A stretch of DNA of 64,000 bases from an uncultured Planctomycetales bacterium (lineage in GTDB: Bacteria > Omnitrophota > Gorgyraeia > Zapsychrales > Fredricksoniimonadaceae): NCBI GenBank assembly GCA_964438075.1, contig CAYTIW010000008.1:5359-69358 (forward strand), read 5' to 3'. Shown here in pieces: positions 16,337 through 35,445 of the stretch (its first letter is position 1; every line of letters starts with the position of its first letter). The notes under the pieces were generated by a model that worked only from the letters and a program-made list of their open reading frames with translations, ran no database searches and had not been told where the DNA came from. Made by a program: the position numbers and the translations under genes.

Positions 16337-18310
16337 TCATGACACGCTGATCATCCTTAAGAAGAAGAACAATAACAGGTAACCCCCTAAAATAAGAACA
16401 CCCGCGTTGGACGTAGTGCATAAAAAAAAGAGCATAACGACTGAAAAAGCCTTGCGGAACAGGAAATTATCCAAACGCGGGTTATCATAAACAAGAGTAT
16501 GGAGGTTGTAACTCCGCCAATTAATGTCCCGTAGCTTGTTCCCCCTGACCATATCCTCAAAGAATGCGGAACCGGGGATAGGCGTTAAAAAGGACAAAAC
16601 GGTAAACTGAGGCCAAAGCTTAACACAAAACAGCCACAACCTTAACAATGACGCCAGCCCATCGTTCTCAAAACCATAGATAAAATGGCCTTTGACCTTA
16701 ATTCCCGCGCGCTTGAGTTTCATGGTCAGTTCGACATATTTTGCGGCCAAGGCCAATTTCCCTCCCCGGCCCGACTCTTCCGAACCGGGGCTGACCTCAT
16801 AACCTATCAACAACACGCAGCAACCGCTCTCCTTCAGCAGTTCGATCGTTTTATCGTCGCTGGCGATATCAATGCTTGATGAACCAACCCATTGAAAATG
16901 AAAAGGGACCATGGCCTTGAGAAGTTTCTTGAAATATTCCGGGTCGGCGTAAATATTCGAATCAATAAAACAGATTTTCTTGGTACGGGCGGATATTTTC
17001 TTCAAATATACCAGCATCTGGTCAATATCATTGGCACAGGCATCAAAACCTTCCTGCCAAAAGGGCATAGCGCAAAAATAGCACTTGAACTTGCATCCTC
17101 TGCGCGTTTCCAAAAAACTGGCAATGACTGCCGGAGGCTGTTCCGCCAGATATTGCCGCACAGTGTCCACATCTTTATCCAAAATAAAGGACTGATAGAC
17201 AGCGCGAAGCTCCCCCTTTTCGTGATCATGGAGCACCTGGCTCCAAACGCTCTCGACAGGGCCGATGACAACGCTGTCACAGAATTCCAGCGCCTCATCA
17301 GGAAAAATGCTCACGTGCGGCCCGCCCATGACGACCTTTGAACCACGTTTTTTGAATTCCTTGGCTATCTTGTATGCTTCGGCAGAATTGGCTGTCAGAC
17401 AAGATATCCCTACCAAGGCGCCCCCCTCATAATATTGGTCGCTCCATAAGACACGGTTAAACTCCCTGATCTGATATTTCCTGGGCGTTAAAGCCCTTAT
17501 AATTATTAATGCCGGCGGAGGCGACCAGAAGACCAGAGAACCCAATGCCTGGAGGGTGCCGCTGAAAGGCGGATTAACTAAAATAAGCTGATGCGTTCTT
17601 CCGGGCCCGGATGGAATCGGGCTTGGGGGATACAATGACCTGATCAAGAAGATAAAGAAAACCAGTTCAAGGAATTTCAAAGCAAAACTTAGAAGCGAGG
17701 CTGCAATAAAATTATCCCGCCAATAACCATATACAAGATACGCGAAAAGGACGTCCAGAAAGTAAGTAAAGAGCATTAACAAGCAGGTTCCGACATCCAG
17801 GGAATGCCTGGGGGGATGCGGGTTACCATTATGATATGGATCAAAATAGAGGGCCAGAAAAACGAGTAAAGGTATGTTACATATCGAGGCTATGATCTCA
17901 AATGGAACCGGATATTTACCTGTAAGCAGATAAGCCGCAAAATGGATCGCCGCCGGAATAAAAGCGCAACCCAGGACGGCTTTCCAGTTACGCCTCATCT
18001 GCGTCAACATGCGATCACGTTTGAGCAGTGCTTCCTCGCCGACAGCTATCATGGCCACGGTGGCAAGCCCGCCAGAAATAATTAACACCTTGGCCAAGGT
18101 CCCCAGCCCAAACTGCAGCGCGAACAATATAGGCTTCAGCACCAAGTTGGAAGTTGCAGCCGTAAAGACCCAATTATCGAAAAAATAAAAAAGAGCTATA
18201 ACCGACGTTACGCGCAAAGCCGTTCGTATAGAATCCCGCAAACGCTGAAGAACCTGATCGGGCCTGATGGGTCCTAATACTTTCGATATGGGCAGCATTT
18301 TGCGAGACAT
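16337..18310 (-). CDS. B12-binding-domain radical SAM enzyme fused to an N-terminal polytopic membrane domain
   Basis: 657 aa. Residues 1-235 hold about six hydrophobic helices. A Rossmann-like B12-binding region follows (LILVNPP...GISCLTANSAEAYKIAKEFKKRGSKVVMGGPHVS), then the CX3CX2C motif RRGCKFKCYFCAMP. A C-terminal hydrophobic tail is present (VVMLFFLCTTSNAGVLILGGYLLLFFFL). It starts 26 nt after the secretin stop. Confidence 0.8.
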   Translation of the reverse strand: MSRKMLPISKVLGPIRPDQVLQRLRDSIRTALRVTSVIALFYFFDNWVFTAATSNLVLKPILFALQFGLGTLAKVLIISGGLATVAMIAVGEEALLKRDRMLTQMRRNWKAVLGCAFIPAAIHFAAYLLTGKYPVPFEIIASICNIPLLVFLALYFDPYHNGNPHPPRHSLDVGTCLLMLFTYFLDVLFAYLVYGYWRDNFIAASLLSFALKFLELVFFIFLIRSLYPPSPIPSGPGRTHQLILVNPPFSGTLQALGSLVFWSPPPALIIIRALTPRKYQIREFNRVLWSDQYYEGGALVGISCLTANSAEAYKIAKEFKKRGSKVVMGGPHVSIFPDEALEFCDSVVIGPVESVWSQVLHDHEKGELRAVYQSFILDKDVDTVRQYLAEQPPAVIASFLETRRGCKFKCYFCAMPFWQEGFDACANDIDQMLVYLKKISARTKKICFIDSNIYADPEYFKKLLKAMVPFHFQWVGSSSIDIASDDKTIELLKESGCCVLLIGYEVSPGSEESGRGGKLALAAKYVELTMKLKRAGIKVKGHFIYGFENDGLASLLRLWLFCVKLWPQFTVLSFLTPIPGSAFFEDMVRGNKLRDINWRSYNLHTLVYDNPRLDNFLFRKAFSVVMLFFLCTTSNAGVLILGGYLLLFFFLRMISVS

Positions 18311-18336: not shown

Positions 18337-19878
18337 TCAATCGGCGTTGGGAATATTTTGGATATCGTGATCGCTCACATCCCCGGAAATGATCGTCGGT
18401 TTTATGAATATGGCTATTTCCGTCTTTTGGACCGAATGGTTCTCGCTTCTGAAAGCGAAACCCAGGAGCGGCAACTTGCCCAGGAGGGGGACCCTCTTAT
18501 CTGTCTTTATTATCTCTTCTTTGATAAGGCCTCCGAGAATGATAGTGACCCCATCCTTGATCATTACTTTTGTTTCGGCTTCGGATGTCTCAATGATCGG
18601 TATAGTATTATTGTTGCTGGTCGTTATCTTCCCCGTTGCCGAGCTGACTTCGGGCTTTATCTTGACGGTAATAAAACCATCATTATGAATAGTAGGGGTC
18701 ACATACAGCTTAACGCCCACTTCCATGAAGTTAACACTCTCCGCCGTTGTCGCCGGTCCGGAAGATGTGGTGGTGGTGGTGGAGGTCACATACGGTTCGG
18801 AAGAACCGACCAGTATCTTAGCTTCTTCGTTATTCAAAGCGGTGATACGCGGGCTGGAAAGGATCTTGGTCGATCCGATCGTATCTAAAGCTTCCAGCAT
18901 CAGCGTGAAATCATCTTCCGATAAAGTGCCGATAGCCACCTTACCGCGCTTGTCAGAGTCAGCCAAGACTGAAAAATCGCTGGTAAAGGTCAATTTCTTG
19001 TACTTGGCTATCACGGCTTCCCAGTCTATTCCCATCTTATGCTCGTCATCGAGGATAACCTGCACGATCTTTGCCTGGATCAAAACCTCTTTATGCCTCA
19101 AATCAAAAGCTTTGATGATGTTACGTATTTGATCCACAACCCGTACGGTATCTGTGACGACGAGCCGGTTGGAACGGTCGTCTGATTTTAAAATGCCCAA
19201 CCCCGGGGTCAACAAGGGAGTTATCTGGGCTGATACATCTTTGGCCAACGCGTAATTGATGTCAAAAACCTCCGTGATCGTCTTAACGTCCAGGCGCTTG
19301 ATGATATCTTCCATTTCAACAATCTTTGCCGGCGTATCTATCAATACCAGCGTATTCGATTTGTCATCTACCAGCACTTTCCCCTGAGAACTTTTGACTT
19401 GGTTCAATAGAGCCGAGACAGCGGCCGTATTACCGTAATTCAAATTATAAATGCGATTACTGAACGGCCGGCCGAACTTTTGCCCGAACCTTTCTTCATA
19501 CTCTTGAGACGTCATCACTTTTATGATATCCCCCTCTTCAACGAATGCCCAGCCGTACGCATCGACAATGACCCTCAACGCATCCAGCACTCCTATATCT
19601 TTTAAATATACAGTGACCCGGCCTTTAACATTTTGTGAAGCCACTATATTACGCTGAACCTTTAACGAAATTAGGCGCAAAACGTCCGCTATATCAATTT
19701 GTTTAAAATCCAACACATCTATAATCGCGGGAGCGGGAGGCGCGGACGCATCAATTTTTGTCGGGTTTCCAAGCGGGGGCTCCTCTATCGCAACGGCATC
19801 ATTGCATAAAGAACAAACAAATAAGCAACTTGCCCCGATGAGGATCTTCTTAAAAGAAAGGATGTAGTTTTCGGCCAT
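18337..19878 (-). CDS. gspD: Secretin (GspD/PilQ/MshL family outer-membrane channel)
   Basis: 513 aa with a signal peptide, an STN/N0-like domain and two Secretin_N-like repeats (YNLNYGNTAAVSALLNQV..., FDINYALAKDVSAQITPLL...). The C-terminal secretin core is TIILGGLIKEEIIKTDKRVPLLGKLPLLGFAFRS...EIAIFIKP. Confidence 0.9.
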   Translation of the reverse strand: MAENYILSFKKILIGASCLFVCSLCNDAVAIEEPPLGNPTKIDASAPPAPAIIDVLDFKQIDIADVLRLISLKVQRNIVASQNVKGRVTVYLKDIGVLDALRVIVDAYGWAFVEEGDIIKVMTSQEYEERFGQKFGRPFSNRIYNLNYGNTAAVSALLNQVKSSQGKVLVDDKSNTLVLIDTPAKIVEMEDIIKRLDVKTITEVFDINYALAKDVSAQITPLLTPGLGILKSDDRSNRLVVTDTVRVVDQIRNIIKAFDLRHKEVLIQAKIVQVILDDEHKMGIDWEAVIAKYKKLTFTSDFSVLADSDKRGKVAIGTLSEDDFTLMLEALDTIGSTKILSSPRITALNNEEAKILVGSSEPYVTSTTTTTSSGPATTAESVNFMEVGVKLYVTPTIHNDGFITVKIKPEVSSATGKITTSNNNTIPIIETSEAETKVMIKDGVTIILGGLIKEEIIKTDKRVPLLGKLPLLGFAFRSENHSVQKTEIAIFIKPTIISGDVSDHDIQNIPNAD

Positions 19879-19940
19879 AAATTGATTTATTTGTTAAATA
19901 GTATATATCTGGCAATGTTAATTTTACATGAAAATATGTT

Positions 19941-20540
19941 TTATCGGGCCAACTCGACAACCTGGTCCCCATCTTTGAGTAAAACCCGATCCGCTTTAAT
20001 TTCCTCAACAGAGAAATTATCGATCCTCTGCCCTTTGGAAACAATCATGGTTTGATGGCTCTGTATATCCTCAATGACCGCCGTTGGGTTATTATCCAAC
20101 ATTATTCCCGACAGCTTATAGCGATCAGAGACGGCCGCCACAGGAGATGAAGAGGAACGCTCGTCTTCATTCCTTTGCTCAACCGGGGAGGAAAATATAT
20201 CCCTGGCTTGTATGATCTCGTGATAATTCCGACCATCTTCCGTCATTATCCGCTCTGACAGCTCTTTTTCGCCGCTCCTGCCGGATCCCCCAACAGGAAT
20301 TTCCGACATAACAGGGCCAGATGTATTTGCTTTCTGAAATTTAACGACCAGTAAAACAAGCATGACCGCAGCCCCGATCAGAAAGATCACCGTGCCCCCT
20401 TTCCAGAAGAAAATGTAAAAGGAAGACCACCGGCGCGCCCCCCCATCCTTATCGGGCTCCTCAGGAACCGCCGCAGGCCCCAGCTTTTTATTTCGGATCA
20501 AATTTAATAATTTTTCTTCCGATGAAACATTCTTATTCAT
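19941..20540 (-). CDS. Bitopic GspB/GspC/PilP-like secretin-interacting protein (no PDZ)
   Basis: The track start is TTG 20552. ATG 20540 overlaps the exeA stop as ATGA. It has one TM (VIFLIGAAVMLVLLVV). The C-terminal domain YKLSGIMLDNNPTAVIEDIQSHQTMIVSKGQRIDNFSVEEIKADRVLLKDG resembles GspC-HR/PilP folds. Confidence 0.5.
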   Translation of the reverse strand: MNKNVSSEEKLLNLIRNKKLGPAAVPEEPDKDGGARRWSSFYIFFWKGGTVIFLIGAAVMLVLLVVKFQKANTSGPVMSEIPVGGSGRSGEKELSERIMTEDGRNYHEIIQARDIFSSPVEQRNEDERSSSSPVAAVSDRYKLSGIMLDNNPTAVIEDIQSHQTMIVSKGQRIDNFSVEEIKADRVLLKDGDQVVELAR

Positions 20541-21367
20541 GGATAATCCCAAATATTATCTTGCTGGATAACCTTATCGATGATGTTTTCCGTGACAAAG
20601 GGCTCCTCATTCATTATCAATAATTCTATCGCATTATGACAAAGCCTGGCTATCTGCCTGGGATACCCCTTAGTATGATCATAGATCTTTTTGATCGCCC
20701 CGGGAGAAAACAAACTGTTGGGAGCCGAGTATCCGGCTTTACGCAAACGGAATTCGATCATCTGCCCGGTTTCATATTCATCAAACGGATTTAACCTGTA
20801 TTTCAATGATATCCTATCTACAAAATTCCTGACATTTTCAAGGGCTGGCAAAAATTCCATTTGCGCGAAGATCACCAATTGCAACAGTTTCTGATCATTC
20901 GTCTCATAATTCAATAAGGTCCTGAGGATTTCCAGATGTTCTTTCTTTAATTTCTGGCCCTCATCAATTACCAAAACGACTGTTTTATGCTCCTCGACAC
21001 AACGCCTGAACAAGTACTTCTCGATGGCATCTCGATAGTCAACGGTGGTCCGAAAGAACGGGGATATCCCGAAAATCTTCGTTAAATGGGCGTAAAACAA
21101 ATTCTCCGACTTAAATGAAGGATCCAAGACCATATGGAATATAAAATCGTCCGCATCTTCTTCGAAAGACTGGATCAGAGTACGGCAGAGGGTCGTTTTC
21201 CCTGTCCCGACATCGCCCAAGACCAGGCTCAACCCTCTTTTTAAACGCAGAGCGATCTCCAGTTGGTTCAAAGCAGATATGTGCCCTGGGGACTTGTAGA
21301 AAAAGTCCGGATCAGGACTGGTGGAAAAAGGCTCACGTTCCAAATGTAGCGAAGAAAGATAGCTCAT
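20537..21367 (-). CDS. gspA: ExeA/GspA/MshM-type AAA+ ATPase
   Basis: 276 aa. Walker A is LGDVGTGKTTLCR and Walker B is VVLVIDEGQ. The length and N-terminal EREPFSTSPDPDFFY are typical of ExeA-like proteins. Confidence 0.8.
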   Translation of the reverse strand: MSYLSSLHLEREPFSTSPDPDFFYKSPGHISALNQLEIALRLKRGLSLVLGDVGTGKTTLCRTLIQSFEEDADDFIFHMVLDPSFKSENLFYAHLTKIFGISPFFRTTVDYRDAIEKYLFRRCVEEHKTVVLVIDEGQKLKKEHLEILRTLLNYETNDQKLLQLVIFAQMEFLPALENVRNFVDRISLKYRLNPFDEYETGQMIEFRLRKAGYSAPNSLFSPGAIKKIYDHTKGYPRQIARLCHNAIELLIMNEEPFVTENIIDKVIQQDNIWDYP

Positions 21368-21381
21368 GCCGAACCTTTAGA

Positions 21382-21915
21382 TCACTCCAGAACGAATATC
21401 CTGGATAACGAAAGATTAACACGCAAATCGGTGCCGGAGACTCTCATAGGCTTAACAATATCCAACTCATCGATATTAAAGTAATAAGGTTTCCCCTGCA
21501 TAGCATCGAGAAACTCAACTGTCCTGTCGAAAGGTGCCTCAAAAACCAAATTGACCGAAAAAGCATTGAACCGGCCTTGCCGTTTCATGACGGCGGGCTT
21601 CAGCTCGGAAATATGCAGGTCAACTTTTGTAGCCACCTTTTCTATTTCGGAAATCAATTTAGAAACGCTCTCTTCATCAGTACCTGCCTGCCGAAAAGCA
21701 CTCCGGTAATACGCTTCCTTGGCCTCCGCCCCTTTAGCTTTATTGATGGCCAACAAGTTCTTTCTCAAGATGCGCTTTTGTGACAATATCGCATCCGAGA
21801 CGGACTGCGACCTCTCCCGCAAAGGCTTGATCACAAAATGCATTGTTACATAGATCCAGACCACCCCTATGCATAAGGCCAATATGACTTGTTCTCTTTC
21901 ACCAAGACTACGCAT
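21382..21915 (-). CDS. GspM/PilO-like inner-membrane assembly protein
   Basis: 177 aa. It has an N-terminal TM (VILALCIGVVWIYVTMHFVI), a coiled-coil segment and a C-terminal alpha/beta domain. Position and size match GspM/PilO. Confidence 0.55.
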   Translation of the reverse strand: MRSLGEREQVILALCIGVVWIYVTMHFVIKPLRERSQSVSDAILSQKRILRKNLLAINKAKGAEAKEAYYRSAFRQAGTDEESVSKLISEIEKVATKVDLHISELKPAVMKRQGRFNAFSVNLVFEAPFDRTVEFLDAMQGKPYYFNIDELDIVKPMRVSGTDLRVNLSLSRIFVLE

Positions 21916-21919
21916 AATA

Positions 21920-23344
21920 TTATTGTGGCTTCTTTAATTTAAATTGGATCTTAAATTCCACCAGATCTTTATTATACAATTTACGCTTGGCAGTGAATTG
22001 CAGCGTAACGTCAGAAAATTCGGGAGAAGACACCAGCCGGGACTGAAATAAGTTAACGGACGAGCCGGACTGGGCGTAACCTCCTATAACCATTGCGCCC
22101 CCGCGATCGATGCTTAACGAACGCAGACTGACATCTGGGGGCATGATCTGGTATAACTTAATGATAAAACTGGAGAAAGAGAACCGTTTTGACAAATATT
22201 GATCTATGGAATCGACCAGGCCGACTTTGTCACGAGCCTGCTTGGCATCAGTGTCGAAACGAAAAACCTGCTCCTTGACTTGTTGAAGAGCGTGGGAATT
22301 ATAGAAATAATCTGCCCCGATCCAGCAAAGAAAAACAAACCAGAACGAGAAGGCCGCAATAATAAAACGGAAAATATACTTCCGTTTCGCATCCGCATCT
22401 TTAACGTTCCTGACGTGCTTGGCTATCAAGTTCATCAAATTCTTAGATTCAGCGCTGGCCAGTCCCAAGCATACGGCAAAAGAAACCCCGGGGCAATCCG
22501 GCATGCCGCTCTTAATTTTATTACTTGATATATTAATGTCATCCTGATGGTGGAACGACTCGACCGGCAAATGGAAACGCTCTTCCAGAACTGCCGTTAA
22601 CTCACTGATTTCCATCGCGGAGATCACAAATATTCCAGCCACATCCTCACCGAAACGTTCCTTGCGATAAAGACGGACGCTTTGCTCGACCTGGTCAACG
22701 AAACTCGACAGACCATCGTGATGAAGAACGGAAACTCCGCCATTGATAACTCTAGAAAAAAGCAGCCGGCCATCTTGAATAAAACAAGCTTCGGCATGGG
22801 CCAGATCCAGGTTCAGAAATAATATCGGCGCATCCCCCACTCTATCTTTCTTAAGCCTGGACCACTCGACAACACCTTGCGAACTCAACACGTATTTAGA
22901 CGGCAAGACTTTGGATCTCTCCAACAATCTCGCATACCTATCGCCGACATCTTTGTGAACTATATAAATTATCAGCTTGGCATATCCGCCATTTTCCCGT
23001 TCCAGAATCTCATAGTCATAAACCAAGTCCTCCAAAAGATGCGGCAACATATGACTGATCTGGATGGGAAGCATCTTGCGGATCTCTTTATCGTCCGACG
23101 ATGGAATACGCAGCCGCCTGATGGAAGACAGTCTCCGGGGAAGAACCATGATAAAATTATCAGGGTCCACGGATCGGGGCCGGATCATTTGCAGGAGCAA
23201 CAACTGGATATCTTCGTCCAGCTTGCCTTCGATAGAACAGGCATCCTGATCCAGCACCAATGTCCTGCCCCCGCTCCTTTTAGCCTGGATCAATTTGATG
23301 TGCGTCTCTGTGATTTCAATAACAGTTCTTATATTAGAAGGCAT
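21920..23344 (-). CDS. GspL-like protein: PilM-type actin-like ATPase-fold domain + TM + PilN-like periplasmic domain
   Basis: 474 aa. About 320 aa form a cytoplasmic PilM-like region (MPSNIRTVIEITETHIKLIQAK...). This is followed by one TM (YIFRFIIAAFSFWFVFLCWIGA) and a roughly 120-aa periplasmic domain. Confidence 0.65.
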   Translation of the reverse strand: MPSNIRTVIEITETHIKLIQAKRSGGRTLVLDQDACSIEGKLDEDIQLLLLQMIRPRSVDPDNFIMVLPRRLSSIRRLRIPSSDDKEIRKMLPIQISHMLPHLLEDLVYDYEILERENGGYAKLIIYIVHKDVGDRYARLLERSKVLPSKYVLSSQGVVEWSRLKKDRVGDAPILFLNLDLAHAEACFIQDGRLLFSRVINGGVSVLHHDGLSSFVDQVEQSVRLYRKERFGEDVAGIFVISAMEISELTAVLEERFHLPVESFHHQDDINISSNKIKSGMPDCPGVSFAVCLGLASAESKNLMNLIAKHVRNVKDADAKRKYIFRFIIAAFSFWFVFLCWIGADYFYNSHALQQVKEQVFRFDTDAKQARDKVGLVDSIDQYLSKRFSFSSFIIKLYQIMPPDVSLRSLSIDRGGAMVIGGYAQSGSSVNLFQSRLVSSPEFSDVTLQFTAKRKLYNKDLVEFKIQFKLKKPQ

Positions 23345-23350
23345 ATATGT

Positions 23351-24436
23351 TCAACTGCCGCTCCTCTGCCATGACAGGACATTTGATGTGCGCAAATCTA
23401 TAACAAATTGGCCGCTAATCACCACTCCGGAAGAAGTATCCGCCCCCCGTATATCGAAACGCAAAGCATCCGCCGGCGCTGAACCGTAAGATATCAGAGC
23501 AAAATATATGGCCTTCTCTTTGGAATTAAGCTCCATGTTATTATAATCGATCTTCCGGCCCGGGCTACCCATCTCGGCCAGAGAACGATCCCGATAATCC
23601 GATATTTTTTTGACCAGGCTGTCGGCATCTTCACGGCCAGTGTTTGTCCTCGGGCCGCTCAGGGCCCGGGCGAAAGCCAGGAGCAATTCCTTAGGTGCGG
23701 TATCCAAATTCAGGCTCAGCTCGCCCGTCCTGGGAAAGACCGTGACGTATGGTTCGAGTAAAAGCATGATCTCAGCGGTCATGCCTCTGACCAAAACCAG
23801 CTCCTCAAATGAATCAAACGGTCGGTTCTTGCATTTATACGGCCTGGTTTGATTAATATACAAATCGTCCTCATTTTCTTCGCCTTGCCCGAAAACATCA
23901 TTATCAGGATCTTTCCAATCCACGACCGATCTGGCGATATTTAGAGCGGCATCTTCTTTCACACCAAGGACCATTAACAACTCCTGCAGAACACTATAAT
24001 TATTAGCCCCTAGACCGTTAAGATTGATCCGGTCGGCCTCATCCTGGAACCACGGCTGAAACGCGGCCTTGGCACTGCTCTCACCCTTAACTGGGTTGCT
24101 TATGCGAAAATACCCCCCGTCCAAAGGCATTTGCTGGAACGGCTTATATATAAAATCCGCCAGCGGCTGTCTTCCTTCCGGTGCGGAGTTAACATCATTC
24201 CTTAAAGCGGACCACTTTTTTAACTTCTCGTGAGCGACGAACAATCCTGACCATACATAAGCCCTGCTCCTGGTCGAGCCGATCTGATATTTAGCGAAAT
24301 AAATTTCTTTTTGCGCCCACCTCCCTATAACAAACACAATAGCACTAAGAACCACCGTGACCCAAAGAACAGCTACCAGCACTATACCAGAATCATCGGG
24401 ACGCCGTAAACTGCATCTCATGTTTTTATAGGACAT
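23351..24436 (-). CDS. gspK: Minor pseudopilin GspK
   Basis: 361 aa. It has an N-terminal hydrophobic helix (GIVLVAVLWVTVVLSAIV). GspK blocks are present: DEADRINLNGL, ARSVVDWKDPDND...GEENEDDLY and NRPFDSFEELVLVRGMT. Confidence 0.8.
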   Translation of the reverse strand: MSYKNMRCSLRRPDDSGIVLVAVLWVTVVLSAIVFVIGRWAQKEIYFAKYQIGSTRSRAYVWSGLFVAHEKLKKWSALRNDVNSAPEGRQPLADFIYKPFQQMPLDGGYFRISNPVKGESSAKAAFQPWFQDEADRINLNGLGANNYSVLQELLMVLGVKEDAALNIARSVVDWKDPDNDVFGQGEENEDDLYINQTRPYKCKNRPFDSFEELVLVRGMTAEIMLLLEPYVTVFPRTGELSLNLDTAPKELLLAFARALSGPRTNTGREDADSLVKKISDYRDRSLAEMGSPGRKIDYNNMELNSKEKAIYFALISYGSAPADALRFDIRGADTSSGVVISGQFVIDLRTSNVLSWQRSGS

Positions 24437-24488
24437 AAACGATCATTTCTTGCCTGACCTCTTAAGATGAGATTTTCTCAATATGAGA

Positions 24489-25229
24489 TCAGCGCTTCAG
24501 GTTAATACCGCCTGGCATAAGGGCGACTTTATCAAAATCTATATTCTGCGCATTCTTATCACCGTTATCGTTAATAATAAAATGCATCCGAACTGCTAAC
24601 GGCAGGGCCGGCTCCTTCCACTCGGCCCTCCAAGCGAGAGCATTTGCCTTGTCCGAATTAACTGCATAGGCGAATTTGAGCCCCCCAGCTATGATGTTCT
24701 CAGCCATCGTTTCTTCAGGGCCGGATACCTGAAAATTCCCCGAGATATATTCAATGAAATCAACTTCCTCCCTGATCAAAGAAAAGCTCACAGGGGCATC
24801 CTGAGCATACTGAGTAACGGTGACATTACGTTTGTAACTATTGCCCAGAATGGTCTTCTTGCTAACGCCCTTTTCCCTAACCAGCAAAGAATATTTAACC
24901 ACCTTAAGTTTGCCTTGAGAACGGGCCACAAATACTATTGAATCACTTTTGCCTTCAAGAGCGGAATGACCGGGATATGAACCAGTAAAGTCATAAGCGA
25001 CCGCGTCCTCAATATCTTTTGCGAAACGGTTCATCACCAGCTGGGACTGACGATAAATGCCCTTCTGGCTCTCCAAACGTTTAAATATATCCATCCCGGT
25101 TCTGAATGTGACGTAAACGCACAGTGATACAAAAGAAAGCAGGGACACCCCCAAAAGCACTTCGATCAGGGTGAAGCCATGGAATTTTTTCGACTTACGG
25201 CTTGGCATCATAATAAACCAAAGGGACAT
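24489..25229 (-). CDS. Minor pseudopilin (GspJ-like by position and size)
   Basis: Prepilin-type N-terminal methylation motif KFHGFTLIEVLLGVSLLS. The track start is TTG 25232. ATG candidates are 25229 (AAGGT upstream), 25211 and 25208. Confidence 0.7.
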   Translation of the reverse strand: MSLWFIMMPSRKSKKFHGFTLIEVLLGVSLLSFVSLCVYVTFRTGMDIFKRLESQKGIYRQSQLVMNRFAKDIEDAVAYDFTGSYPGHSALEGKSDSIVFVARSQGKLKVVKYSLLVREKGVSKKTILGNSYKRNVTVTQYAQDAPVSFSLIREEVDFIEYISGNFQVSGPEETMAENIIAGGLKFAYAVNSDKANALAWRAEWKEPALPLAVRMHFIINDNGDKNAQNIDFDKVALMPGGINLKR

Positions 25230-25605
25230 CAATGCTTACCTTACGGCGCCCATACCCCCATTCCTGTTTCAGTGACAAAAGCTGAAGGCCATCATCGTCC
25301 CCGAAAGGAAGCTGGCCATGGGATATATGAAATAGGTACGGGTCAGAACCCGTATCAGCCGGGCCAGGGCTCTGGCTCAGTAATGTTTGCGGCATAATCA
25401 GAAATTCCGCTATTTTATTATCCAGCAGATTACAGGCCTCCATATAATTCCTGGCCCGAGATGCGGCCCTGGCGGAAGATGCCATCGATTGCAGGATAAC
25501 AACTATGCTTGAGGACAAAATAGCCACCGCGACAAGAACTTCTAACAAAACTGCCCCTCGTCGTGAATTGGGCCTCAGCTTGTTCGCCATGCCGCGTTTT
25601 CTCAT
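25195..25605 (-). CDS. Minor pseudopilin (GspI-like by position and size)
   Basis: Degenerate prepilin motif RRGAVLLEVLVAVAILSS. ATG 25605 overlaps the upstream stop as ATGA, which removes the long overlap implied by the track start at 25668. Confidence 0.65.
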   Translation of the reverse strand: MRKRGMANKLRPNSRRGAVLLEVLVAVAILSSSIVVILQSMASSARAASRARNYMEACNLLDNKIAEFLIMPQTLLSQSPGPADTGSDPYLFHISHGQLPFGDDDGLQLLSLKQEWGYGRRKVSIDVPLVYYDAKP

Positions 25606-26066
25606 TCCGAAGTCCATTCCGATATCCTGATATCGGCATATAATTCTTTTGTTGTTATGAGAATGCAATCATTCAAAATGCATAGGGTTATTTCCGCTTT
25701 TCCTATACTACCATCAGGCATGAACTCAACGGGCAATCCGTCACAAACGACTTTGACGGCAGGATCGAGATCGATAATTTTGCCCAGACTTCCGCTGACA
25801 CGGGAATAACCGTTCGTTTCTTCGTGTTCTAGCCAAAAATGAGACAGGTCGGGACTGGATGCGAGACGGTATCGGCTGTTCTGAGATAAAGCGCGCAAAT
25901 GAGCGGACTGCATCAAGTCCAGGATCTTATAGGCCTTGTTTTTCAAACCAAGTTTATTCAAAGAATTAGTAAGATCGGGGATGGTAAGGGAAGCCAGAAT
26001 GGACAGAACAACGATGACCAGTAATATTTCGATGAGCGTGAACCCGTACAAGCGTTTACAGCCCAT
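25602..26066 (-). CDS. Minor pseudopilin (GspH-like by position and size)
   Basis: Prepilin motif MGCKRLYGFTLIEILLVIVVLSILA. ATG 26066 lies 5 nt after GGAGG. The track start at 26093 is GTG. Confidence 0.7.
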   Translation of the reverse strand: MGCKRLYGFTLIEILLVIVVLSILASLTIPDLTNSLNKLGLKNKAYKILDLMQSAHLRALSQNSRYRLASSPDLSHFWLEHEETNGYSRVSGSLGKIIDLDPAVKVVCDGLPVEFMPDGSIGKAEITLCILNDCILITTKELYADIRISEWTSE

Positions 26067-26126
26067 AGCAGCCTCCGGACTCTTCATCAACACATTAAGC
26101 GGTGCCTGACCATTAACTGGCGGGTA

Positions 26127-26567
26127 TTATTTATCGCCCCAATTGTTAACATCATCAGAACTCACCACACCATCCGGCCCGAGAGAGGAAAGATCGTAAT
26201 TCTCCGGATTGTGAGCTCCGGGGCAAACATAAACATACTCCCTGCCCCAAGGATCCAGGGGGGCCTGCCTCTTTTTCAAATAAGGCCCCCTCCATTTCTC
26301 AATGCCATTATCAGCCGTCGGTTTTGTGATCAATGCCGGCAGTCCATCTTCAGTAGTCGGATATTTACCATTATCTATCTCATAAAGATCCAACGCTGTC
26401 GCCAAATTGCCGTCAATATCAGCCCTGGCAGCAGACACCTTGGCCTGTTCGCCGCGCCCCACGAAATTAGGGACCACCATGGCCGCCAGCACGCTGATTA
26501 TAATGACGACCAGCATGATCTCGATCAATGTAAATCCGTTTTTACGAACAATTTTCCTTTCCGCCAT
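26127..26567 (-). CDS. gspG: Major pseudopilin GspG
   Basis: 146 aa. KNGFTLIEIMLVVIIISVLAAMVVPNF followed by AKVSAARADI...LDLYEIDNGKYPTTEDGLPALITKP...WRGPYLKK...DPWGREYVY is the classic GspG pattern. Confidence 0.92.
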   Translation of the reverse strand: MAERKIVRKNGFTLIEIMLVVIIISVLAAMVVPNFVGRGEQAKVSAARADIDGNLATALDLYEIDNGKYPTTEDGLPALITKPTADNGIEKWRGPYLKKRQAPLDPWGREYVYVCPGAHNPENYDLSSLGPDGVVSSDDVNNWGDK

Positions 26568-26583
26568 CTTAACCCTTTTCTTT

Positions 26584-27819
26584 CTACCTTATGAGCTGGT
26601 TCATCTGCATTATAGGCAGCATTATAGCTATCACAATAAATCCGACCACGGCCACCAGCCCTATCAGGACCATCGGCCCTAACAAAGACACACTGGTAGC
26701 CATCATTCGTTCAGCCTCACGCTCATAGATATCGGCTATCTTGTATAAACCTTTCTCGAAGTGACCGGTTTCCTCGCCGATATAGATCATATCAGACACC
26801 ATTTCGGGAAAGAATTCTACTTTCTTTAAAGCGTTCCCGAGCGACATGCCATGCAAAACTTCGGACGAAACAGCCGACAATTGCTCCCGCAGGACATGAT
26901 TGCTTACCGTCTCTTTGGCGATATCCAAAGCTTTTACAATGGCCACTCCGTTCTCTATCAATGTCCCCAGGACCCTGGCGAAACGTCCCGTCTCAACCGC
27001 CTGGATAAACGGCCCGACTACCCACATTTTAAGCAGATGCCAATCTATCCACCTTTTTCCCCTATCCGTTCGGCCCCATTTGATCAACCAGTCGCTGCCG
27101 ATTATAAAAGCTACCCCTATCAACCACCAAAATCTAGCCAGCAATCCGCTGATCATCATCAAAATAGTTGTCGGAAGCGGCAACGACTGTCCGGCGTCCT
27201 CAAACATGATAACAAAACGAGGGATAACAAACGATAAAAGGATAAAAACCACCAGGAAACCAATGAACAGGATCAACAATGGATACGCCAGGCTAGCTTT
27301 TACTTTCCCGGCGATCTCCTGTTCTTTCTCCAAATAACCCGCTAAACGGCCCAAGATGATCTCTGACCTGCCGGCCATTTCGCCAGCCCTGACCATTTGA
27401 ACATAATATGGCGAAAAAATATTTTGATGCCTGGACAATTCAGAAGAAAAAGACGCCCCGTTCCGGATCCCCTCTCCCATTTGGTCAATAATAGACCTGA
27501 ACTCTTTATCACGTGTTTTTCTTGAGACCAGTTGAAGTGCTTTATATATAGGGACCGCTGCATCCAACATGTCGCTCATTTGACGAGTAAAATAAACCAC
27601 TTCATTCCTATTGATCCTAGCCTTTAACGCCTTTGGCTCTATCAGACCTTTGTCCGGACCGGTCAAAGCCGCCTCAATATCATCCGCCCTAACCTCTATT
27701 GGCGTTAATCCTTTCTTTATGAGCGCATCAACGGCCTGGCCGTAATCAGCAGCTTCCACGACACCTTCCAGCAATTCATGAGGCACTTCTTTCGCTTTGT
27801 ACTTGAACTTGGGGGACAT
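26584..27819 (-). CDS. gspF: Type II secretion / type IV pilus platform protein GspF/PilC
   Basis: 411 aa. It has two T2SSF repeats separated by TM segments (LAYPLLILFIGFLVVFILLSFVIP; LLGPMVLIGLVAVVGFIVIAIMLP). Confidence 0.92.
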   Translation of the reverse strand: MSPKFKYKAKEVPHELLEGVVEAADYGQAVDALIKKGLTPIEVRADDIEAALTGPDKGLIEPKALKARINRNEVVYFTRQMSDMLDAAVPIYKALQLVSRKTRDKEFRSIIDQMGEGIRNGASFSSELSRHQNIFSPYYVQMVRAGEMAGRSEIILGRLAGYLEKEQEIAGKVKASLAYPLLILFIGFLVVFILLSFVIPRFVIMFEDAGQSLPLPTTILMMISGLLARFWWLIGVAFIIGSDWLIKWGRTDRGKRWIDWHLLKMWVVGPFIQAVETGRFARVLGTLIENGVAIVKALDIAKETVSNHVLREQLSAVSSEVLHGMSLGNALKKVEFFPEMVSDMIYIGEETGHFEKGLYKIADIYEREAERMMATSVSLLGPMVLIGLVAVVGFIVIAIMLPIMQMNQLIR

Positions 27820-27821
27820 GA

Positions 27822-29513
27822 CTAGCCGGCCTCGTCCTGGGCCGTCACCCTCAATATCTCATGATAGGTGGTAAGACCGGTTTTGACCTTCTCCCAACCG
27901 GACTGCGCGAGTGTCTTCATACCCTTGGCCACGGCAGCCTCGCGGATCGTCTCGGCCGACGCGCGTTCGAGGATGAGCTTCCTGATACCTTCATCAATGA
28001 GAAGAAACTCGTAAATAGCTTGCCGCCCAAGGTAGCCGGTGCCGCTGCATTTCTCGCAACCTTTCCCTTCGTAAAATACCATCGACTTATCTATTGGCAG
28101 CCGGTCAAGACCTTCGAACCGTTTGTTGCTGGGGTTTTTGCAATGCGGACATATCGTCCTGATCAGCCTTTGAGCTATGAAACATTCGACCGTGCTTGTT
28201 ATCAGGTATGGTTCCACGCCCATATCCAACAATCGAGCCACTCCGCTGGCAGCATCGTTGGTATGCAAAGTGGAGAAAACCAAATGGCCGGTGAGAGCTA
28301 TTTGAACAGCTATCTCTGCCGTCTCAACGTCGCGGACTTCTCCTATCATCATGATATCCGGATCATGCCTCAATATAGACCTTAACCCTTTGGCAAAAGT
28401 CAATCCGACCAACGGATTGATCTGGATCTGGGTAATTCCTTTTAACTGGTACTCAACCGGATCCTCGATCGTTATTATTTTATAATCTTCGGTATTAATT
28501 CTGGACAAACAGGAATAAAGCGTGGTGGTCTTTCCGCTCCCGGTGGGCCCAGTGAGAAATATTATTCCCCAGGGCTTCTTAATCAGTTTTTCCAGCGTTG
28601 CTTTCTCATCCGGCCTTAAATTCAGTTCTTCGAATGAATACAGTTTAGCCGTATTAAGAATACGCAAGACCAAACTTTCTCCGAACTGGGTCGGCAGAAA
28701 AGAGACGCGGAGGTCCAAGTCCACGCCCTCAGCCCGCACTTTGAAACGGCCGTCATGAGGAATTCGGCGTTCTGCGATGTTCAGATTGGACAAAACTTTA
28801 ATACGTGTGGCTATCGCGTCCTTGAAATGTTTAATATCGGGGGGTATCTTGGCATTATGAAGGACGCCGTCGATACGATAACGTATCTTCAACTCATCCT
28901 CATAGGGCTCAATATGTATATCAGTCGCACGGCTCTCATATGCTTCCATCAATATCTGATTCAAGAAACGGCTTATGGTAGCTTCCGAACCCGGGTCATC
29001 CAAGCGGTTGATCAAAACATCGGTCTGCGGCGCAGCCCGAACGCTCCCCATCATCTTCTCAATAGTTTCAGCGCCCAAGCCATAATATTTCTGTATGGCC
29101 TCAACGATATCTTTCTCTGTTGCCAGGACAGGCTTCAATGGGAAGCCTGAGATCGCGGCGACCTCATCCAGATTCTGTATGTTCAACGGGTCGGCTGTTG
29201 CCACAGCCAGACCATGATCGTCACTGAAGACCGGAATTATCTTATAAAATAAAGCGATCTTAGCTGGAATTTTCTTAATAGTACCTCGCGATATCTCAAT
29301 ACTCTGAAGATCAACATAATTAAGGCCGCATTGTTCTGCTAAAACAGGGAAGAAAACTTTCTGGTCGCTGACGTATCCCAGTTCGAGCAGAATCTCCCCA
29401 AGCAACTGAGCGGACTTTTCTTGCCGGTTAAGAGCGAGGTCCAACTGCTCCTGGGTGATTATATCCTTTGCGACCAGCATCTGTCCCAATAATATGTTCG
29501 TTGGCAGTATCAT
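27822..29513 (-). CDS. gspE: Type II secretion ATPase GspE with N-terminal MshEN/T2SSE_N domain
   Basis: 563 aa. Walker A is LTGPTGSGKTTTL and Walker B is IMMIGEVRD. The Asp/His boxes and a tetracysteine motif CPHC...CEKC are present. The N-terminal roughly 145 aa form a T2SSE_N-type domain. Confidence 0.95.
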   Translation of the reverse strand: MILPTNILLGQMLVAKDIITQEQLDLALNRQEKSAQLLGEILLELGYVSDQKVFFPVLAEQCGLNYVDLQSIEISRGTIKKIPAKIALFYKIIPVFSDDHGLAVATADPLNIQNLDEVAAISGFPLKPVLATEKDIVEAIQKYYGLGAETIEKMMGSVRAAPQTDVLINRLDDPGSEATISRFLNQILMEAYESRATDIHIEPYEDELKIRYRIDGVLHNAKIPPDIKHFKDAIATRIKVLSNLNIAERRIPHDGRFKVRAEGVDLDLRVSFLPTQFGESLVLRILNTAKLYSFEELNLRPDEKATLEKLIKKPWGIIFLTGPTGSGKTTTLYSCLSRINTEDYKIITIEDPVEYQLKGITQIQINPLVGLTFAKGLRSILRHDPDIMMIGEVRDVETAEIAVQIALTGHLVFSTLHTNDAASGVARLLDMGVEPYLITSTVECFIAQRLIRTICPHCKNPSNKRFEGLDRLPIDKSMVFYEGKGCEKCSGTGYLGRQAIYEFLLIDEGIRKLILERASAETIREAAVAKGMKTLAQSGWEKVKTGLTTYHEILRVTAQDEAG

Positions 29514-29700
29514 ATTTGTTTTAACCCCATATTTTATTATTCATCCGTAGTATATAGTCTTCACTGGGGAGAGAAAAGCAATTATTTAGGAAATGGGCGG
29601 ACAAGAAGCCAGCTTTTACCGGATATATCTCTTCCGACATTGAAGGCAGGTTTCCGCACTAAAGTCAAAATAGAAACGACCCTTCTTGTGAAAAGTCAGA

Positions 29701-31240: not shown

Positions 31241-31660
31241 TTAAAGCTCGTTCTCGTTTATCAGCTTAAAACCTGCTTTGCGCAGTGCGGCGGAAGCTTT
31301 CTTTACCTCTCCGACTTCCAAGCAACAAATGCCTGTCCCCGTTGGAGTATGCACAAAACCGCGGGCATCACTGAGATTGATCTTCAGCCTCTCAAAATTC
31401 TGGCAGATCTTGTGCAGGTTCCCCGGTCTATCCTTTGCTGTAATGAGGATGACCTCCTTGATCGCCGCGGCATAACCGGCGTTCTGCAACGCCAAACAGG
31501 CGTCATCGGCCTTATCAACCAGCATTTTTAATAAACCGAAATCACCTCGGTCTTGGATGGCAAAAAGGATAATATTCATCTTCTTGGAAGCCAAAAGATC
31601 GGTCACCGCATTAAGGCGGCCGGGTTTATTCTCTACGAACACATTGATTTGCTTGGCCAT
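31241..31660 (-). CDS. ACT-domain (amino-acid-binding) regulatory protein
   Basis: 139 aa. Tandem ACT-like beta-alpha-beta-beta-alpha-beta repeats (INVFVENKPGRLNAVTDLLA...; ITAKDRPGNLHKICQNF...). Confidence 0.7.
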   Translation of the reverse strand: MAKQINVFVENKPGRLNAVTDLLASKKMNIILFAIQDRGDFGLLKMLVDKADDACLALQNAGYAAAIKEVILITAKDRPGNLHKICQNFERLKINLSDARGFVHTPTGTGICCLEVGEVKKASAALRKAGFKLINENEL

Positions 31661-31671
31661 TTATTTTCTCC

Positions 31672-32985: not shown

Positions 32986-33413
32986 ATCGCCCCGAGTTCC
33001 TTATTGCCGACGACGCGTATATGCTCATCTTTCAAAGCCACGACGGCCTTGGCTGGATCATCAAAACGGAACACCATCATCGCCTTTCCAGCCCTCGGCT
33101 CAACGAAGCCGTACATATACTCCACATTAATATTATGTTTATCAATGGCGCCGAGGACCGTGGCCAATCCGCCGGGCTTATCCTCCACCTCAACCGCGAC
33201 CACTTCAGTCTCATGCACGACAAAACCGTTCTCTTTAAGCAACTTGGCTGTCCCATTAGGGTCTTTGACTAGTATACGCAATACCCCGAAGTTGTCGCTC
33301 TCCGCGACTGTCAAGGCGCGTATATTCACCCGGTTCTCCCCCATAAAAGAACACACATCGTAAAGCCGGCCTTTCTTGTTCTCCAGAAAGATGGAAAGTT
33401 GTATGTGGGTCAT
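32982..33413 (-). CDS. ACT-domain (amino-acid-binding) regulatory protein
   Basis: 143 aa. Paralogous in architecture to 31241-31660 (LSIFLENKKGRLYDVCSFMG...; VEVEDKPGGLATVLGAI...). Confidence 0.7.
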   Translation of the reverse strand: MTHIQLSIFLENKKGRLYDVCSFMGENRVNIRALTVAESDNFGVLRILVKDPNGTAKLLKENGFVVHETEVVAVEVEDKPGGLATVLGAIDKHNINVEYMYGFVEPRAGKAMMVFRFDDPAKAVVALKDEHIRVVGNKELGAI

Positions 33414-33482
33414 GCGGCCTCCATGATTACAGTAGACCTGAAAAGAACGCCCAGATCAACGAGCAGCCCGTCTCAAGTTTCT

Positions 33483-34778: not shown

Positions 34779-35263
34779 GGCTTGACCTCGCTGAAACCCT
34801 CATTAAATATCCTGATATTATCATCTAAACGTTTATTTCTAAATTCACGCTCCAAAGCATCCATCCAGGAACGCATTGGAAGCTCCAGTCTCGCCGACAA
34901 TGCGCCAAGCATAAAGGTATTTAGGAACATGCGATCGATGTTCTTCTGATGCGCACTGATCAGCTGTTCGTGCAGGTTAATGCCGCCCGGCCTCAGGAAT
35001 GCGCGAAGCCGCTCCTCTTCGCCGGAATGGAAAGGGACCAAGATATCACATTCACCTTTGGGGACCATCGGCGAAAAGACCTGTTCGCCGAAACGCAGAT
35101 GAGACTCAACCGATCCTCCGCGCTGGGCCATGCCATGCACTTCGGACTTTTTCACATGGAAACCGGCGAAGACCGCTGCCCAGCCGCACACTTCGGACGC
35201 TTTAAGCACACCCTGTCCACCGGTACCGCAAAATAAAATATTCTTTGTAGCCCCTGCCGACAT
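34775..35263 (-). CDS. iorB: Indolepyruvate:ferredoxin oxidoreductase subunit beta
   Basis: 162 aa. The N-terminal NILFCGTGGQGVLKASEVCGWAA...EVHGMAQRGGSV is typical of IorB / 2-oxoacid oxidoreductase gamma-type domains. SD is GGAAGAAGG. Confidence 0.8.
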   Translation of the reverse strand: MSAGATKNILFCGTGGQGVLKASEVCGWAAVFAGFHVKKSEVHGMAQRGGSVESHLRFGEQVFSPMVPKGECDILVPFHSGEEERLRAFLRPGGINLHEQLISAHQKNIDRMFLNTFMLGALSARLELPMRSWMDALEREFRNKRLDDNIRIFNEGFSEVKP

Positions 35264-35445
35264 TATCTAAACCTTCTTCCAAAACCCCTGATATTCAAAT
35301 GTTCAACTTTGGCGGGTGAATTTAATTCTACAACTGCCCAATATGAAAACCAAACTAAAAAAATTATCGCGACAACAGCTGTCAATGCCACGATAAATTC
35401 AGAGAACTTGGGATCGCCTCGCACAACAACGGGACCCTATTCAGA

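Follow-up and report, generated by a model that had tools for sequence, protein, structure and literature searches.

The stretch of DNA analysed here (the window) comprises 64,000 nucleotides (nt) from an uncultured bacterium assigned to the phylum Omnitrophota (contig CAYTIW010000008.1, positions 5,359 to 69,358 of the forward strand), and our subject is the cluster of 12 co-directional genes that fills its positions 18337-29513 on the minus strand (Table 1). The genes, designated here by single letters, follow the order E-F-G-H-I-J-K-L-M-A-C-D and encode an assembly ATPase, a platform protein, five pseudopilins, the GspL- and GspM-like proteins L and M, an AAA+ ATPase, a bitopic membrane protein ending in a homology region (HR) domain, and a secretin. 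Altogether, our analysis makes it likely that they form a single-operon type IV filament machine belonging to the class of type II secretion systems (T2SS), in the form that is standard for Omnitrophota and with a lineage-specific A-C-D module.

Gene identities were assigned with Pfam and NCBIfam hidden Markov models (HMMs), read against trusted or equivalog cut-offs, and with phmmer comparisons to a reference panel of Escherichia coli T2SS and type IVa pilus (T4aP) proteins and Aeromonas proteins of the mannose-sensitive haemagglutinin (MSH or MSHA) pilus. These scans upheld all gene identities proposed in an initial annotation of the window made from the letters alone, and the positions of the open reading frames (ORFs) confirm the non-canonical order that it had noted, with the secretin last; canonical gsp operons run C-D-E..M, with C and D first. 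The junctions are tight: 2 nt at E/F, 16 at F/G, 33 at G/H, 52 at J/K, 6 at K/L, 4 at L/M, 14 at M/A and 62 at C/D, with 4-nt ATGA overlaps at H/I and A/C that were read directly in the DNA. The 12 linked genes, their coordinates and these two overlaps stand as initially described; the I/J junction does not, for there the overlap is longer than 4 nt (about 35 nt, a value that depends on the start codon chosen for J). E-values down to 1e-129, together with conservation across loci, rule out that the cluster is due to chance.

The presumed promoter region separates E from an upstream ThiF/TcdA-like gene and contains, just behind the latter, a terminator-like hairpin (29698-29677). An Rfam scan of the window returned zero families, hence no cyclic di-GMP (c-di-GMP) riboswitch. 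The window encodes no second traffic ATPase (PilT-like), second secretin or second HR protein. As initially claimed, it also lacks a prepilin peptidase: Pfam, applied to most ORFs of at least 150 residues, gave no Peptidase_A24, and phmmer --max with E. coli GspO as query matched none of the window ORFs of at least 60 residues. In many systems the prepilin peptidase is encoded away from the locus.

Table 1 Genes of the operon and its upstream region, in window coordinates
Feature	Product	Length	Position	Strand	Characteristics
E	GspE/PilB/MshE-class assembly ATPase	563 aa	27822..29513	-	Pfam T2SSE 432 bits, MshEN 66.6 bits
F	Inner-membrane platform protein GspF	411 aa	26584..27819	-	T2SSF twice, 197 bits
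G	Major pseudopilin GspG	146 aa	26127..26567	-	Site G↓FTLIE; TIGR01710 138 bits (cut-off 88.85)
H	Minor pseudopilin at GspH position	about 161-163 aa	25602..26093	-	G↓FTLIE; N_methyl 26.7 bits; weak GspH/GspG/ComGD
I	GspI-like minor pseudopilin	136 aa	25195..25605	-	G↓AVLLE; TIGR01707 GspI 35 bits, under cut-off 44
J	GspJ-like minor pseudopilin	about 246 aa	24489..25232	-	G↓FTLIE; N_methyl 22.9 bits; weak GspJ
K	Minor pseudopilin GspK	361 aa	23351..24436	-	PF21687 T2SSK_1st 77.6 bits (cut-off 26.2)
L	GspL/MshI equivalent (predicted fold)	474 aa	21920..23344	-	PilN (Pfam) 44 bits; PilM (TIGR01175) 40.6 bits, weak
M	GspM/PilO-like bitopic protein	177 aa	21382..21915	-	NF040576 GspM_XpsM 32, T2SSM 22.8, T2SSM_b 20.6 bits, all sub-cut-off
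A	ExeA/GspA/MshM-family AAA+ ATPase	276 aa	20537..21367	-	AAA_22 75.5 bits; Walker A GDVGTGKTT, Walker B VLVIDEGQ
C	GspB/GspC-like bitopic protein	199 aa	19941..20540	-	Cytoplasmic helix with motif SSEEKLLNLIRNKK, transmembrane helix about 40-73, linker, HR 141-198
D	Secretin	513 aa	18337..19878	-	Signal peptide, N0, N1/N3-type Secretin_N twice, Secretin 164 bits
Promoter region	Presumed promoter region of the operon	187 nt	29514..29700	-	Intergenic; sole long gap flanking the cluster

Filament, platform and assembly ATPase

Judged by sequence, the filament genes of the operon are clearly of the T2SS type, in agreement with the initial reading of T2SS pseudopilins in a type IV filament machine: G scores above the trusted cut-off of its GspG model and K carries T2SSK_1st. 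Over 142 residues, the C-terminal GPDG..DDxxNWG motif included, G shares 46% identity with the GspG of E. coli K-12; it scores 22 bits against E. coli PpdD and about 27 bits against the Aeromonas MSHA pilins. K has a prepilin-like N-terminus (...DSG↓IVLVA) without Glu+5 and reaches 107 bits with the GspK model NF037980 (cut-off 130); E. coli GspK is its sole reference match. The three prepilin-type genes at the H, I and J positions have family scores that are all below cut-off, and in the panel the top matches of I and J are E. coli GspI (18.8 bits) and GspJ; I, J and K match only GspI, GspJ and GspK among the references. The length of I is the same as that given by the gene caller in the identical locus L004.

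The platform protein F scores 366 bits with the NCBIfam GspF model (TIGR02120, cut-off 424) versus 284 with PilC, and in the panel it matches E. coli GspF (182 bits), Aeromonas MshG (180) and HofC (109). The assembly ATPase E, composed of an N-terminal MshEN-type domain and a catalytic part and bearing a CxxC...CxxC zinc motif, looks intermediate between classes: it scores 398 against Aeromonas MshE, 347 against E. coli GspE and 320 against HofB, and its best Protein Data Bank (PDB) match by sequence is Geobacter PilB (472 bits) because of the N-terminal domain only, the catalytic part alone tying PilF (372) and EpsE (365). Denise et al. concluded that T2SS and MSH both derive from T4aP (PMC6668835), and an intermediate-looking E is therefore unsurprising.

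With 53.7 bits (cut-off 38), the N-terminal part of E exceeds the threshold of NF053729, the NCBIfam model for the c-di-GMP motif. The c-di-GMP-binding MshEN motifs, two of 24 residues, were defined by Wang et al., and T2SS ATPases too can carry MshEN-type N-domains (PMC5013675). In both motifs of E, RLG reads LLG (Arg to Leu), and one conserved Gly (Gly18) is replaced by Asp. LLG or another non-Arg variant replaces RLG in most E proteins of the clade with a readable N-terminus (L002-L050), the rest of the motif being kept; an exception is the distant locus L027, of the group 2 described below, which has RLG in motif I. Judged by these motifs, the MshEN domain of the clade (window 29340-29513) may be a non-binding variant or one of altered specificity. 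We do not claim c-di-GMP control: both motif arginines are gone and the window has no riboswitch.

GspL-like protein, GspM-like protein and secretin

PDB sequence searches with L, M and A gave nothing useful, and for L no match at all; the fold of L was therefore taken from an AlphaFold2 (AF2) model with a mean predicted confidence (pLDDT) of 79.9. In this model, a cytoplasmic actin-like (PilM-fold) domain (residues 1-300) is followed by a long transmembrane/coiled helix (306-384) and a periplasmic PilN-type ferredoxin-like alpha/beta domain (390-470). Foldseek places the cytoplasmic part next to PilM (5eou, E=9e-20 over 350 columns), then FtsA, and then the cytoplasmic domain of GspL (4pht_X and 1yf5, E about 5e-9). 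The fused PilM/PilN-like protein of the initial annotation is thus corroborated by PilM and PilN profile matches as well as by the AF2 model and Foldseek. GspL and MshI are by homology PilM plus PilN fusions, and L, as modelled, is best described as a GspL equivalent that retains a complete PilM-like domain in a fusion of PilM fold, transmembrane helix and PilN fold. The fused L-like family numbers 1076 clusters (50% identity) at E<=1e-30, and the 150 matches listed are mostly of about 470-490 residues and match over their full length. Orthologues of M in other loci match PilO and T2SSM.

The secretin domain of D stops at residue 497, leaving no room for an S-domain. Its N0 domain passes the GspD N0 model PF21305 (31 bits, cut-off 27), its N0-N1 region matches GspD N-domains, and its best PDB match is XcpQ/GspD (5wln, 143 bits). 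With the MshL model TIGR02519 it scores 177 bits, below the cut-off of 250 and below the 279 bits of a genuine MshL; among the references it matches HofQ (117 bits), GspD (108) and MshL (107).

ATPase A and HR protein C

No other protein of the operon is as conserved as ATPase A, whose identity across loci is 60-88%, versus 56-79% for E and 22-51% for L. Its relatives that are at least 60% identical form more than 120 database clusters, in Omnitrophota under names such as 'ExeA family' or 'general secretion pathway protein A'. Its initial assignment to the ExeA/MshM type is borne out by AAA_22 and by scores of 110.9 bits against Aeromonas MshM (34% identity) and 106.1 bits against the ATPase domain of Aeromonas ExeA; E. 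coli GspA gave no significant match. These paralogues score equally and sequence cannot decide between an MshM and an ExeA identity, which leaves architecture as the only informative character. A is cytoplasm-only, with no transmembrane helix, no periplasmic region and no peptidoglycan-binding domain (PF01471), an architecture shared with MshM and with the Alteromonas-type GspA, which has no periplasmic part (PMC9239104).

The best NCBIfam model of A is that of the XrtA/PEP-CTERM-associated ATPase (TIGR03015, 165 bits over the full length, under the cut-off), and a homologue on a Rhodovulum plasmid lies in an exopolysaccharide (EPS) locus beside a chain-length determinant. On this basis A could be a mere passenger of the operon, serving for example polysaccharide export as in PEP-CTERM/EPS loci. 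We find this scarcely credible: in every case A sits between M and the HR protein, to whose gene it is joined by the ATGA overlap, it co-varies with the N-terminal motif of that protein (see below), and EPS genes are adjacent in none of the loci.

Protein C ends at residue 199 with its HR beta-sandwich and has neither the PDZ domain nor the coiled-coil by which a GspC is recognised. A family profile built from a 12-member alignment matches the HR domain of GspC from enterotoxigenic E. coli in the PDB (3oss_C, E=4e-5). The AF2 model gives the HR domain six strands at a pLDDT of about 90, and Foldseek again returns 3oss_C on top (TM-score 0.80, root-mean-square deviation 1.2 Å, 32% identity), followed by PilP, GspC-HR, LspC and PulC. 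Both profile and fold thus support what had been read from the letters as a PDZ-less protein with a PilP/GspC-HR-like C-terminus. In Pfam, seven of the 12 family members match T2SSC and six T2SSB, all sub-cut-off and over the same HR region, and C weakly matches MshK (E=0.0013). We do not assign C to GspB, GspC or MshK/PilP alone: T2SSB and T2SSC are both sub-threshold over one and the same region.

In the 12-member alignment, a conserved cytoplasmic N-terminal S-x-E-E-K-L-L-N-L-I-R-K-K is followed by a transmembrane helix, a linker that varies and a C-terminal domain that is again conserved. Of the loci that encode A, 10/10 (the window, L002, L003, L006, L007, L010, L011, L013, L045 and L052) have the motif E-E-K-L-L-x-x-I-R; it is absent from 3/3 loci that do not encode A (L008, L009 and L042), in which the protein starts almost at the transmembrane helix. 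Similar N-termini occur in proteins encoded directly after ExeA/MshM-type ATPases elsewhere, namely Ideonella GspB (MSYILDALRRAD), Aeromonas ExeB (MSTLLKALRRAD), Aeromonas MshN (MSVINQMLKDLD) and a Legionella MshN-like protein (MSLLNEMLKDLN). Ideonella GspB (203 residues) has the same plan as C, with motif, transmembrane helix, linker and C-terminal HR domain.

GspB is a transmembrane plus HR protein that binds the secretin N0 domain, and its gene is usually co-located with gspA (PMC9239104). Given that the motif co-occurs with the ATPase and resembles the N-termini of GspB, ExeB and MshN, A and C look, by analogy, like a GspA/GspB-type secretin-assembly pair built into the operon. C probably also supplies the GspC-like link between inner membrane and secretin, since it is the sole HR protein of the locus and takes the GspC position in the A-less variants.

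A consensus MS-x-[IL]-[LN]-x-[AM]-L-[RK]-x-[AL]-[DN] stands at the extreme cytoplasmic N-terminus of four bitopic proteins whose genes come right behind those of ExeA/MshM-type ATPases (L056:9834-11018, L058:9910-10965, L059:6630-7241 and L057:2953-3636), which are GspB, ExeB and MshN proteins of Ideonella, Aeromonas and Legionella and differ in their periplasmic domain, HR versus tetratricopeptide repeat (TPR). From the sequences, it is tempting to speculate that the shared N-terminal motif may be a general docking site for the ExeA/MshM ATPase family.

Distribution in Omnitrophota

A scan of genome contigs gave one locus only, and metagenomes searched with aligned relatives of L yielded 47 loci, onto which the 12 window proteins were mapped with phmmer. 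The closest genome match is a Candidatus Omnitrophota metagenome-assembled genome (MAG; locus L001, L 51% identical), with the order E-F-G-H-I-J-K-L-M-A up to the contig end. Every long-enough locus with an L protein 28-51% identical to ours has E-F-G-H-I-J-K-L-M, followed by A-C-D either directly or after an insertion of 0.3-6 kb. This order recurs in L001-L007, L010-L013, L045, L052 and the P0057 contig, more than ten independent MAG or metagenome loci, and on three NCBI/JGI/ENA contigs read whole (L002, L052 on a 1.17-Mb contig, and P0057) the 12-gene order is identical; in L052 the expected place of E is taken by a long ORF cut off by the beginning of the available sequence, and L003 has the same order with G not recognisable. 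The layout, recurring as it does across these loci, is therefore normal for the lineage: it is the standard form of Omnitrophota and not peculiar to this genome. Among the A-less variants, L042 has the canonical order C-D-E-F-G-H-I-J-K-L, and L008 and L009 have L-M-C(-D). All named database relatives of L and A are from Candidatus Omnitrophica/Omnitrophota.

The initial annotation had allowed that this architecture might already be the common annotated form of its source lineage. Common it is, but annotated as a T2SS it is not, the relatives bearing generic names such as 'PilN domain-containing protein', 'AAA family ATPase', 'ExeA family protein' and 'general secretion pathway protein A'. We found no paper describing this operon or its A-C module. 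A 'T2SS-like' locus reported upstream of giant genes (West-Roberts et al., 10.1101/2023.11.21.568195) was considered and set aside; it is of the RcpC/Tad type and unrelated to the operon.

A-C-D stays one block in L010, L011, L013 and L045 despite the 0.3-6 kb insert after M, and the block is in this sense separable from the genes before it. Together with the lack of A in some relatives (L008, L009, L042), the 34% identity of A to MshM and the weak MshK match of C, this would fit a recent chimera in which a T2SS E-to-M block recombined with an MSH-type block (MshM, PilP-like protein and secretin). We consider such an origin highly improbable: A is equally similar to ExeA, D is not of the MshL type, the HR domain is nearest GspC, GC content is uniform along the operon at about 0.45-0.49, and, although the L proteins of the loci share no more than 28-51% identity, the block has been kept with the rest of the operon, so that any fusion would be old and lineage-wide and not peculiar to this genome.

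A second group of loci (L032:2368-14160; also L017, L021, L027, L030, L034-L036 and L040) has the order E-F-L-M-G-(H)-I-J-K, with F1-like ATPase genes (OSCP/b, alpha, gamma, beta) directly upstream of E. No secretin, ExeA-like ATPase or HR protein was found within 10 kb of these group-2 loci. Their L proteins are 20-24% identical to that of the window, their major pilin is 57-59% identical to the window GspG, and their K protein matches T2SSK/HHH_3. Seymour et al. reported T4aP in nearly all Omnitrophota, often beside a non-respiratory F-type ATPase (PMC10066038), and the group-2 loci are the 'symbiotic F-type ATPase/T4aP' arrangement of that study. Their T4aP label may need revisiting.

Several operons orthologous to that of the window are flanked by large putative surface or secreted proteins: a 1143-residue fn3/beta-helix protein followed by an RHS/YD-shell protein in L003 (15459-21434), and further proteins (L052:1-2978 and the gene upstream in P0057), one of more than 1714 residues and one of more than 1008 residues with CarboxypepD_reg, to which Big_1, FG-GAP and other families match only faintly. 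The L052 operon is followed by a peptidoglycan hydrolase of the Amidase_3 family (13255-14274). These flanking proteins are candidate substrates or co-factors of the orthologous machines; nothing comparable flanks the operon in this window.

Class of machine and working model

The assignment to the T2SS class rests on the sequence features of the pseudopilins, on GspF, on the N0/HR pair and on the lack of a retraction ATPase at the locus. The initial annotation had called the operon a blend of T2SS and T4P/MSHA components. The individual features it listed are all there, but a blend is not needed to explain them, since a PilM plus PilN fusion is what GspL and MshI are, A is as similar to ExeA as to MshM, and MshEN domains also occur in T2SS.

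That the operon instead builds a true surface pilus of T4aP or MSH type, for attachment to host or prey cells and not a secretion pseudopilus, appears unlikely to us. The best full-length matches of E are PilB and MshE, L has a PilM/PilN-like fold, an MshM-type ATPase is mandatory for MSH in TXSScan v2 and MSH loci likewise have no prepilin peptidase (PMC6668835), Omnitrophota are reported to have T4aP in almost all cases and to be epibionts or predators (PMC10066038), and the paralogous F-ATPase-linked 'T4aP' loci have a major pilin 57-59% identical to G. On the other hand, the major subunit encoded here is an orthodox GspG, a GspK with its alpha-domain is present, the locus contains no PilT, PilY1, MshN/TPR protein or MshA-type pilin, D falls to 177 bits against the cut-off of 250 of the MshL model, and the HR domain is nearest that of GspC.

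A number of observations also weigh directly against a T2SS-class machine with an A-C-D module, which we nevertheless favour. E, F, D, K, I, J and M all remain under their NCBIfam equivalog cut-offs. E scores 587 bits with GspE (TIGR02533, cut-off 630) versus 580 with PilB, both under cut-off, a tie that a true MshE likewise gives, and in the Aeromonas caviae genome, which holds all three ATPase classes, MshE is the closest to E. D ties between PilQ (248) and GspD (244), both sub-cut-off. The Pfam GspL models do not match L, whose cytoplasmic domain is closer to full-length PilM than to the shorter cytoplasmic domain of GspL, and a profile comparison of C with a small GspB/GspC/MshK panel did not separate the classes. 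The N-terminal motif of C is short, and its co-occurrence with the ATPase was counted over 13 related loci without phylogenetic correction. GspN, a prepilin peptidase and a PDZ- or coiled-coil-bearing GspC are all missing from the window, and no secretion substrate was identified for the operon. The TXSScan-based survey of Omnitrophota reported T4aP and Tad and no T2SS (Seymour et al. 2023, PMC10066038).

What was observed directly, namely gene content, domain and fold identities, conserved gene order and the co-occurrence of motif and ATPase, nevertheless suggests a working model for the T2SS-class machine; its physical interactions, secretion as its output and the role of ATPase A are inferred. 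By analogy with characterised T2SS, a hexamer of E would dock on the cytoplasmic actin-like domain of L and on the GspF platform, and L would pair with the GspM/PilO-like M in the periplasm. A prepilin peptidase from elsewhere in the genome would process G, H, I, J and K, and a K-I-J(-H) tip would prime a short GspG pseudopilus that drives folded periplasmic proteins out through the GspD-like secretin. A, presumably translationally coupled to C, would bind the conserved cytoplasmic N-terminal helix of C, and the C-terminal HR domain of C would bind the secretin N0 domain. The A/C pair might thereby act like GspA/GspB (ExeAB) in ATP-controlled assembly, anchoring or gating of the secretin, with C taking the place of the absent GspC in joining the inner membrane to the secretin.

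We offer a bolder version, which we regard as rather unlikely as a whole: in the Omnitrophota T2SS, a GspB-like HR protein would have replaced GspC and be wired by a conserved cytoplasmic helix to a dedicated MshM/ExeA-type AAA+ ATPase, so that a second cytoplasmic ATPase would control secretin assembly or gating directly across the inner membrane without a peptidoglycan-binding domain; the system would be an early-branching intermediate linking T4aP/MSH and the classical T2SS, and part of the Omnitrophota 'T4aP' would be T2SS-like.

Other features of the window

A B12-binding radical-SAM protein of 657 residues (window 16337-18310) is encoded on the same strand from 26 nt past the secretin stop codon, and its gene may be co-transcribed with the operon. 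We rejected it as part of the system, as no other genome has it next to the secretin and each of the other loci has different genes downstream.

On the far side of the operon, window 31241-37233 encodes a PaaK-like phenylacetate-CoA ligase paired with an ACT-domain protein, twice in tandem, beside an indolepyruvate-type 2-oxoacid:ferredoxin oxidoreductase, which suggests aromatic amino-acid fermentation. In window 37302-40483, the gene for an extracytoplasmic function (ECF)-type sigma factor overlaps the start of that for an 861-residue vWF_A/VWA/YfbK_C protein, and the two look like a sigma/anti-sigma-like pair. Window 43643-63952 differs in GC content (0.35-0.41 versus about 0.50 elsewhere) and carries minus-strand glycan-biosynthesis genes, among them DUF2079, an FkbM methyltransferase, GT2, SAM methyltransferases, an AsnB-like amidotransferase, a B12/radical-SAM enzyme, a DegT aminotransferase and an NDP-sugar dehydratase; the region probably represents an island for surface glycans.

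Comparison with known systems

The uncultured nanobacteria that make up Omnitrophota are thought to live by predation or parasitism, and export and adhesion machines are central to such a lifestyle. The locus provides a clean, complete and widely conserved example of a T2SS-like system outside Proteobacteria, where nearly all knowledge of T2SS comes from computational calls (PMC4793230, PMC6668835) and T2SS have been reported in several phyla with little experimental support (Denise et al., PMC6668835). On our reading, it would carry the GspA/GspB module beyond the gamma- and betaproteobacteria, to a remote phylum and there into the core operon. The EEKLLNLIRKK helix of the HR protein together with the ATPase makes up a concrete predicted contact that could explain the role of ExeA/MshM-type ATPases. 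Moreover, the result is of use in annotating Omnitrophota, in which 'T4aP' calls may include GspG/GspK-type systems.

With the T2SS of Proteobacteria (Gsp/Pul/Xcp/Eps), the operon shares E, F, G, H, I, J, K, the L and M equivalents, an HR protein and an N0-bearing GspD-type secretin, as well as the GspG and GspK hallmarks and a locus without retraction ATPase. It differs in its order (E..M-A-C-D and not C-D-E..M), in an L that has kept the PilM-like cytoplasmic domain in full as well as a Pfam signature of PilN, in an HR protein without PDZ domain or coiled-coil, in the ExeA-type ATPase inside the operon, in having neither GspN nor GspO, in a short secretin (513 residues) without S-domain, and in the MshEN-type N-domain of E with LLG in place of RLG.

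With GspA/GspB (ExeA/ExeB, EpsA/EpsB, and OutB/GspB of Dickeya; PMC9239104, PMC4098917), it shares the AAA+ ATPase family (106 bits to the ExeA ATPase domain), the succession of an ATPase and a bitopic protein of about 200 residues with an LLxxLR+-type cytoplasmic motif, transmembrane helix, linker and C-terminal HR domain, and, with the Alteromonas-type GspA, the restriction of the ATPase to the cytoplasm. GspA/GspB have been described only in gamma- and betaproteobacteria, however, and usually in a separate operon, and GspA usually has a periplasmic peptidoglycan-binding domain, which A lacks; in addition, C is the sole HR protein of a locus without GspC, and its HR fold is nearer GspC than OutB.

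The MSH pilus loci of Aeromonas caviae and Legionella adelaidensis (L056, L058) resemble the operon in a short cytoplasmic MshM-type ATPase (111 bits), an MshE-like N-domain of E, the presence of PilM/PilN-type, PilO-type and HR/PilP-type proteins and a secretin in one locus, and the lack of a prepilin peptidase. Unlike them, the operon encodes GspG/GspK pilins and not MshA-D/O-Q, has no MshN TPR protein and has a secretin short of the MshL model (177 versus 250); the gene order differs, and in both L056 and L058 the PilM- and PilN-like parts are separate genes. Similarly, the operon shares with the PilMNOPQ set of T4aP a PilM fold, a PilN fold, a PilO-like protein, an HR (PilP-like) domain and a secretin, whereas its PilM and PilN parts are fused, its HR protein is bitopic and not a lipoprotein, and PilA-type pilin, PilT and PilY1 are missing.

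Within Omnitrophota, the group-2 loci (e.g. L032) share the fused L-like family (20-24% identity), the major pilin (57-59%) and homologous E, F, M, I, J and K proteins with the operon, and differ in the order E-F-L-M-G-(H)-I-J-K, in the F1-like genes upstream and in having no A, HR protein or secretin within 10 kb. Set against all of these systems, the operon is not a new kind of machine; what sets it apart is that a short GspA/MshM-type ATPase is integrated in it and coupled to an HR protein resembling GspB and GspC.

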